Below, piece after piece: positions 1-341 of a stretch of 341 nt of DNA. The DNA comes from Escherichia coli (GTDB lineage Bacteria; Pseudomonadota; Gammaproteobacteria; Enterobacterales; Enterobacteriaceae). Below the pieces are notes generated by a model. The model saw only the letters and a program-made list of their open reading frames with translations, did no database searches and was not told where the DNA came from. The DNA lies in NCBI RefSeq assembly GCF_003334335.1, contig NZ_QOWQ01000213.1. The stretch is one strand, 5' to 3'. Made by a program: the position numbers and the translations under genes. The stretch's first letter is position 1. Each line of letters starts with the position of its first letter.

Positions 1-341
1 AACCAGATTGAAGGCGATCTCGTTAAAACAGTGGGCAAAGCTTTCCCCCGGGACTCCCGTGCACCGGAGCGGTGGCCATCAGGGACCATTACCGTCAGGG
101 TTTATGACGATCAGCCGTTTGACCGGCAGATTGTTATTCCGGCGGTGGCATTCAGTGGCGCTAAGCATGAGAGAGAGCATACTGATATTTACTCCTCATG
201 CCGTCTGATAGTGCGGAAAAACGGTGCTGAAATTTATAACCGTACCGCGCTGGATAATACGCTGATTTACAGTGGCGTTATTGATATGCCTGCCGGTCAC
301 GGTCACATGACACTGGAGTTTTCGGTGTCAGCATGGCTGGT
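1..341 (+). CDS. J: Internal fragment (5' and 3' ends outside the window) of a lambdoid phage tail tip / host-specificity protein J-like gene, covering the C-terminal receptor-binding region
   Basis: Frame 1 (nt 1-3 = first codon) is open for all 113 codons with no stop. Codon choice is typical of E. coli and its phages (CTG Leu, CCG Pro, GGC/GGT Gly, CGT/CGG Arg). The translation aligns gaplessly to my recollection of the lambda J C-terminus (...GDIVKAASAAFPRQRESSVDWPSGTRTVTVTDDHPFDRQIVVLPLTFRGSKRTVSGRTTYSMCYLKVLMNGAVIYDGAANEAVQVFSRIVDMPAGRGN...). Conserved blocks are WPSGT (nt 73-87), DDxPFDRQIV (nt 106-135), YSxC (nt 190-201), NGAxIY (nt 220-237) and DMPAG (nt 283-297). Not verified by any search. 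Confidence 0.8.

Follow-up and report, generated by a model that had tools for sequence, protein, structure and literature searches.

A 341-nucleotide Escherichia coli sequence is an internal fragment of the lambdoid gene J and covers most of the segment for its Ig-like receptor-binding domain

The window, by which the whole stretch of 341 nucleotides under analysis is meant, is occupied from end to end (positions 1-341, plus strand) by an internal fragment of gene J, the gene for the tip attachment or host specificity protein that forms the central tail fibre, with neither start nor stop codon inside. An ORF scan of all six frames found frame +1 open over the entire 341 nucleotides, corresponding to 113 codons, for which the arithmetical chance in random sequence is approximately 0.004. 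The other five frames contain stops, and the alternative frames and strands were rejected as coding, their ORFs of only 33-66 amino acids being without support. The fragment is 100% identical to gpJ coding sequences in five complete E. coli chromosomes (L001 to L005). The scope of the analysis is the window itself, and its flanks were read by proxy in genomes carrying the identical sequence.

The translation matches the Pfam family PF12421 (Ig_GpJ_C; 'Tip attachment protein J, C-terminal receptor binding domain') over window amino acids 11-111 (E 3.5e-31), the NCBIfam model NF049904 (lambda_TipJ) at profile positions 1017-1133 of 1163 (E 1e-44) and PHROG 2148, 'tail fiber protein' (E 4e-68). 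The best sequence match among solved structures is 'A8 gpJ 713' (PDB 9wca; phmmer, E 9e-31), while residues 992-1100 of the 1132 residues of lambda J (PDB 8iyk) are matched with an E-value of 6e-24. The concurrence of the Pfam, NCBIfam, PHROG and PDB matches confirms the identification as gene J, which had been proposed from the letters of the sequence alone. The 113 amino acids score 152 bits against the full-length cut-off of 1950 for lambda_TipJ, staying below it, as any fragment does, because they are a fragment. In copies that are 91-92% identical to the window, 16-21 of the 26-30 differences fall on third codon positions, and pN/pS in frame +1 against diverged copies amounts to 0.09-0.17; the low ratio combined with the third-position bias demonstrates that this frame is protein-coding and under purifying selection. 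With respect to structured RNA in the window, a search of Rfam with E-values up to 1 gave one match at chance level, of 18.6 bits versus a gathering score of 39.

In four of the five identical copies, the window corresponds to nucleotides 3049-3389 of a gpJ gene of 3474 nucleotides encoding 1157 amino acids (lambda J has 1132), thus covering codons 1017-1129 and two nucleotides of codon 1130. Only 28 codons and the stop follow 3' of the window in the identical genes, in line with the prediction that a few tens of J codons would be remaining. The full-length J of L001, which contains the window exactly, reaches 2317 bits versus the curated lambda_TipJ cut-off of 1950 and is composed of the domains FNIII-A_GpJ, Phage-tail_3, Ig_J, Ig_J_second, Phage_Tail_Tip and, at residues 1027-1157, Ig_GpJ_C. 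In the fifth copy, L003, J is annotated as frameshifted. Gene I and the frameshifted J of this locus are separated by a partial ORF and a TnpB accessory gene of the IS66 family (L003 11122-12039), and this ompW prophage has probably already been inactivated, although its receptor-binding segment is identical to the window. The five identical copies occupy three chromosomal sites, prfC, yecD/aspS and ompW, and the head and tail-shaft modules of their prophages are of two kinds. As the exact 341-mer is present at three sites, the window's own flanks are not uniquely assignable.

Going by the identical copies, the order around the window would be that of a tail module ending in H-M-L-K-I, followed by J, a terminator-like hairpin, lom, a stf-like and a tfa-like gene, with lysogenic-conversion cargo beyond them in four of the five. 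Upstream, the rest of J is present in all five identical copies (in L003 in its frameshifted form), as are, likewise as the sequence-only reading had expected, the tail genes H, M, L, K and I, with the tail-tip genes M, L, K and I next to J. Three of these loci carry the lambda-type series Z-U-V-G-T-H-M-L-K-I, and two carry HK97-like head closure, major tail subunit, chaperone and tape measure genes before M, L, K and I. Downstream, the anticipated lom and stf/tfa homologues follow in all five: an Ail/Lom gene begins 68 nucleotides 3' of the J stop and is succeeded by two further genes, a stf-like one annotated as 'prophage tail fiber N-terminal domain' and a tfa-like one with DUF4376. For L001 the assignment to PHROGs was phrog_108 for Lom and phrog_366 and phrog_1141, both tail-fibre families, for the genes thereafter. 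The same J-lom-fibre order is found in the free phages PhiR5_1 and 2G7b, each 99.1% identical over the window, and M, L, K and I also precede J in these two phages and in one phage-plasmid. A lom gene was absent downstream of J in phage 21 and in a relic of E. coli B.

Between J and lom of L001, a terminator-like hairpin with a T-run lies on the plus strand at 15445-15464, 19-38 nucleotides past the J stop and inside the near-identical cassette described below; terminators are annotated at the same J-lom position in the records of phage 21 and mEp460.

Accessory cargo downstream of the fibre genes had also been predicted, and it is present in four of the five identical loci but not in L003, which ends at ompW. 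The cargo of these four consists of a YadA-like adhesin, small hypothetical proteins, an S6 peptidase in one locus and DinI, after which bacterial core genes follow. Cargo is not confined to the downstream side, as two of the five loci carry some upstream as well, inside the tail-tip operon.

The accessory genes themselves differ among loci. A YadA-like trimeric autotransporter adhesin is encoded in L001 (19098-20201), L002, L004 and L005, and an adhesin/invasin-like ORF takes its position in a further locus, L006. Besides the adhesin, L004 carries an S6-family autotransporter protease gene of about 4 kb (cargo at L004 18811-20337 and 21170-25177), and the cargo of phage 2G7b (L007 17394-21225) comprises an omptin, an alpha/beta hydrolase and a methyltransferase. 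The upstream cargo belongs to the two prophages at yecD/aspS with the HK97-like head and tail shaft, L002 and L005. In these, a porin gene annotated as ompC is located between the tail genes M and L (L002 6202-7365; L005 6198-7361), and clpP and arc, on the minus strand, together with ylcI and ant lie between L and K (L002 8317-10329; L005 8313-10325).

The interval between I and J also differs among loci. L001-type prophages possess a gap of approximately 340 nucleotides before J (L001 11612-11952, about 3.3 kb upstream of the window position), which the lambda-like phage 2G7b lacks, its I-J gap being about 60 nucleotides. On the minus strand of this gap (L001 11750-11615), a near-consensus promoter, TTCACA-16-TATAAT (11/12), is followed by a stretch of about 95 nucleotides and then by a hairpin and a U-run. 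All three parts of this unit, from the promoter through the body to the terminator, are conserved in five loci, in contrast to the J-proximal side of the gap, which is variable; the unit occurs in 63 phage records, mostly unannotated. A search for Rfam families gave no match to it, and the z-score of its fold is only -1.6. The small RNA PasB has been described as embedded in a phage structural operon (preprint 10.64898/2026.05.13.724894), and the minus-strand unit may plausibly be a candidate for this sRNA.

The distribution of identity around the window is that of a mosaic cassette, the boundaries of which were derived from gapped blastn and MAFFT alignments anchored on the window with L001 as the reference. 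Across the window, identity to L001 is 98-100% for L003 and 2G7b and 86-100% for the diverged Qin-like and DLP12-like copies. Upstream it falls to about 70% within 100-200 nucleotides and to 24-55% deeper in the J stalk, while downstream it persists through the J stop and the intergenic hairpin and falls off where lom begins in L003 and 2G7b, further on in other loci. The near-identical block thus extends over approximately 600 bp, from 100 nucleotides before the window to 500 after it, and comprises the receptor-binding domain and the last turns of the beta-prism. The surroundings of the cassette are diverse: it occurs with no fewer than two J-stalk alleles, with several alleles of lom and of the genes downstream and with two head and tail-shaft types, on chromosomes as well as on a plasmid. 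L003 and 2G7b (L007) carry similar J-stalk and lom alleles around it, with 88-98% identity over 500 nucleotides upstream; as their flanking alleles are alike, the two are not independent events and could be accepted only in part as independent recombinant backgrounds, so that the support is for a minimum of two stalk backgrounds and several downstream backgrounds, and not for a large number of independent events. The sharp breaks in identity, one about 100 nucleotides before the window and one where lom sets in, substantiate the suggestion that the region is a recombination hot spot between prophages. The block represents the classical, already known mosaicism of lambdoid host-range determinants.

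Most of the C-terminal Ig-like receptor-binding domain is located at positions 31-333 on the plus strand, as delimited by Ig_GpJ_C model positions 1-104 of 135, the sequence matches to PDB entries and an AF2 model. In the model, which is based on an alignment of six sequences only, the domain is all-beta with pLDDT values of 76-94; over the trimeric prism it is poor, as expected since a monomer was modelled. The four best Foldseek matches in the PDB are all chains of gpJ receptor-binding domains, 9wca, 8xck, 8xcj and 9wcb, with E-values of 5e-20 to 3e-18 and TM-scores of 0.63-0.70. Two of them, 9wca and 9wcb, are A8 gpJ at 63-64% identity, in 9wcb complexed with the OmpC of E. coli EDL933, and the other two, 8xck and 8xcj, are lambda gpJ at 49-50% identity, 8xcj being the complex with LamB.

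An alignment of six types of the domain (the window type, phage 21, a Stx1a type, Salmonella phage SPF_0923 representing the A8 type, lambda and mEp460) displays an invariant scaffold, including the motifs FDRQ, NG and DMPxG, which is broken by four variable, indel-bearing segments at window amino acids 18-26, 54-63, 79-90 and 108 onwards. Segment 1, DSRAPERWP (positions 52-78, plus strand), and segment 2, AKHEREHTDI (positions 160-189, plus strand), are putative receptor-contact loops, and a similar loop role is predicted for segment 3, YNRTALDNTLIY (positions 235-270, plus strand), where a within-type change is found at amino acid 89. The start of segment 4 (amino acids 108-113; positions 322-341, plus strand) runs past the end of the window. 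Segment 2 has the same length as in lambda and is 6-8 residues shorter than its counterparts in the phage 21, Stx1a, A8 and mEp460 types. Amino-acid changes within the type cluster at window amino acids 52-61 and 89-102.

Segments 1, 2 and 4 coincide with residues known to determine specificity in lambda, where the receptor-switch mutations S1011R, S1012G, S1049R, T1053K and N1107K have been experimentally selected (PMC8890733). In the ungapped register between the two proteins, S1011R and S1012G correspond to window amino acids 21 and 22 in segment 1, S1049R and T1053K to amino acids 59 and 63 in segment 2, and N1107K to amino acid 117 in segment 4, four residues past the end of the window. 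The window encodes about 80% of the Ig-like receptor-binding domain of the trimeric central tail fibre. Of the four variable segments, which would set its specificity, it contains three and a half.

The two structurally characterized relatives resemble the window in different respects. With lambda gpJ (8xck, 8xcj, 8iyk) it shares the position of the gene, the Ig_GpJ_C domain, gene I upstream and lom downstream, and window amino acids 2-110 align with lambda residues 992-1100 free of gaps, which makes the loops equal in length; the predicted fold agrees as well (Foldseek E 3e-19). Protein identity over the domain is, however, only 41-50%, and the differences are concentrated in the segments of the lambda LamB/OmpF specificity mutations. 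The closest solved relative is A8 gpJ 713, available in a closed (9wca) and an open, OmpC-bound form (9wcb), which has the same fold and 64% identity in the structural alignment and whose domain sequence is essentially that of Salmonella phage SPF_0923. Compared with A8 gpJ, segment 1 of the window is longer by four residues and segment 2 shorter by five; these two indels sit exactly where specificity is expected to reside, and OmpC binding is therefore not simply transferable. A literature search found no paper describing A8. By profile, by fold and, as read by proxy, by synteny, the window belongs to the lambda TipJ family.

In lambda, four bottom loops of each receptor-binding domain insert into the LamB trimer, upon which the bases of the domains spread, the beta-prism twists, the helical shaft flips and the tip opens (PMC11101478). 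By analogy, the three domains at the distal end of the fibre encoded in part by the window would put their bottom loops into an outer-membrane beta-barrel trimer, and binding would spread the bases of the domains, twist the beta-prism above them and open the tail tip for DNA ejection. The domain is a putative binder of an outer-membrane receptor and would set the host range. The most likely class of receptor for this allele, as a best guess, is a trimeric porin, because OmpC is bound by the nearest relative of solved structure (64%) and LamB by the second nearest (50%); while the loop lengths are those of lambda, overall identity is higher to the OmpC binder. A search of the literature gave no paper or experiment naming the receptor of this domain type, and a preprint on receptor prediction covers GpJ domains of the Drexlerviridae type only. 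Gifsy-1 J was considered as a proxy for OmpC binding and set aside, as its paper gives no alignable sequence.

As ompC is present in the tail-tip operon of two of the five loci and the closest solved domain binds OmpC, a role of the prophage porin in receptor replacement or in exclusion is conceivable. A more far-reaching reading holds that the allele, in view of its frequency in complete genomes, may be the commonest J receptor-binding cassette of E. coli, that its target could be an outer-membrane protein or porin variant beyond LamB and OmpC, and that prophage-borne ompC possibly replaces or supplements the phage's own receptor in lysogens as a barrier to superinfection, which is a speculation we consider improbable.

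The allele is widespread. DNA similar to the window (megablast, at least 80% identity) is found in 3359 of 5426 complete E. coli genomes (62%), at 7328 places with a median of two per genome, 7298 of which are chromosomal and 30 not. Among the 30 best matches (at least 99.7%), 28 are named full-length J. VT1-Sakai (Sp15), the PPompW prophages, many Stx2a phages and the phages 2G7b, PhiR5_1 and PhiR55_1 carry the same allele of the domain with 98.5-99.1% nucleotide identity and the same J-lom-stf order; there is no difference of substance from any of them, and the window is a further copy. We regard the window, with good though not complete confidence, as an internal piece of J from a lambdoid siphovirus in E. 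coli, the source being most probably a prophage that is integrated in the chromosome and has its tail module complete.

The most serious competitor is a defective prophage that has lost the upstream head and most tail genes by deletion and retains no more of J than its 3' part; the fragment would be a non-functional relic, possibly acting as a reservoir for recombination by incoming phages. Remnants of J without upstream tail genes, named in the sequence-only reading as a finding that would speak against its prediction of a tail module, do exist and are not rare. In a spread sample of 60 genomes, for each of which the best place was considered, the annotation gives a full-length gpJ at about 44 of these places and a name of the fragment type at about 15, and a truncated J with this segment was seen in all five relics inspected, four of them copies annotated as non-full-length and the fifth with a match of 93 nucleotides only. 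None of the five exact matches is of this kind, however: all five lie in a full-length J (one annotated as frameshifted) with a complete upstream tail module, the best matches cited above are in the large majority full-length genes, and every relic inspected differs from the window by at least two nucleotides. A relic as the source is thus unlikely, even if it is the alternative to be taken most seriously.

In all five relics the upstream tail genes M, L, K and I are absent, and the truncated J directly follows early genes or a terminase or portal remnant. A dusA-integrated element of the O157:H7 strain F8797 has retained 723 nucleotides of J after early genes, with 99.4% identity, and 3' of J lom, stf and three DUF1076 genes (cargo at L008 11854-13851), the latter presumably encoding NleG-like effectors. 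Res13 and HS possess Qin-like relics of 91-92% identity, in which J is fused after a truncated portal or terminase gene; EcPNK006 has a Rac-like relic with window nucleotides 1-93 only; and the DLP12-like relic of E. coli B, with 92% identity, has an N-terminally truncated J after the small terminase gene and no lom. Decay appears as a recurrent process in these loci (L008-L012): head and tail-shaft genes are lost through a deletion that begins in the terminase, portal or early region and reaches into J, after which the 3' end of J usually persists with the side-fibre gene and, mostly, with lom, at dusA, Qin, Rac and DLP12 sites of unrelated strains.

That the window derives from a free phage genome or an extrachromosomal phage-plasmid instead of an integrated prophage is very improbable. 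The segment does occur in 57 phage records, with up to 99.1% identity, and in 37 plasmid records, among them a linear element of 50.7 kb with sopA/parB, but none of those records is 100% identical, as the five chromosomes are, and nearly all places in E. coli genomes are chromosomal; gene, function and local neighbours would in any case be the same. The linear element (L013; NZ_CP104505.1, 'plasmid p2') carries the receptor-binding segment at 12001-12341 with 99.1% identity and a complete lambda-like head and tail module adjoining sopA/parB. One of its ends carries an additional, inverted copy of the fibre and partition genes, and the element looks like a linear phage-plasmid of the N15 kind, assembled across its hairpin telomere. 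A non-phage machine derived from a tail, such as an F-type tailocin or an element resembling a gene-transfer agent, considered because the sequence-only reading had named a tail-like system of this sort as a refuting case, is effectively refuted, as all inspected contexts are lambdoid prophages, phages, phage-plasmids or relics with terminase, portal, capsid or lysis genes near, the nucleotide identity to cultured phages reaches 99.1% and no supporting point was found.

With respect to its significance, the window as an internal J segment of a probable lambdoid prophage does not depart in anything from a known allele and is in this sense already known. The segment is very common and well annotated, with the NCBI pipeline naming it correctly in thousands of genomes, and carries little weight as a discovery. 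Its practical value is that of a marker, as the sequence flags a lambdoid prophage or a relic thereof, and the adjacent region of lom, stf and cargo often holds genes with a bearing on the pathotype of the strain, for adhesins, autotransporter proteases or type III effectors.
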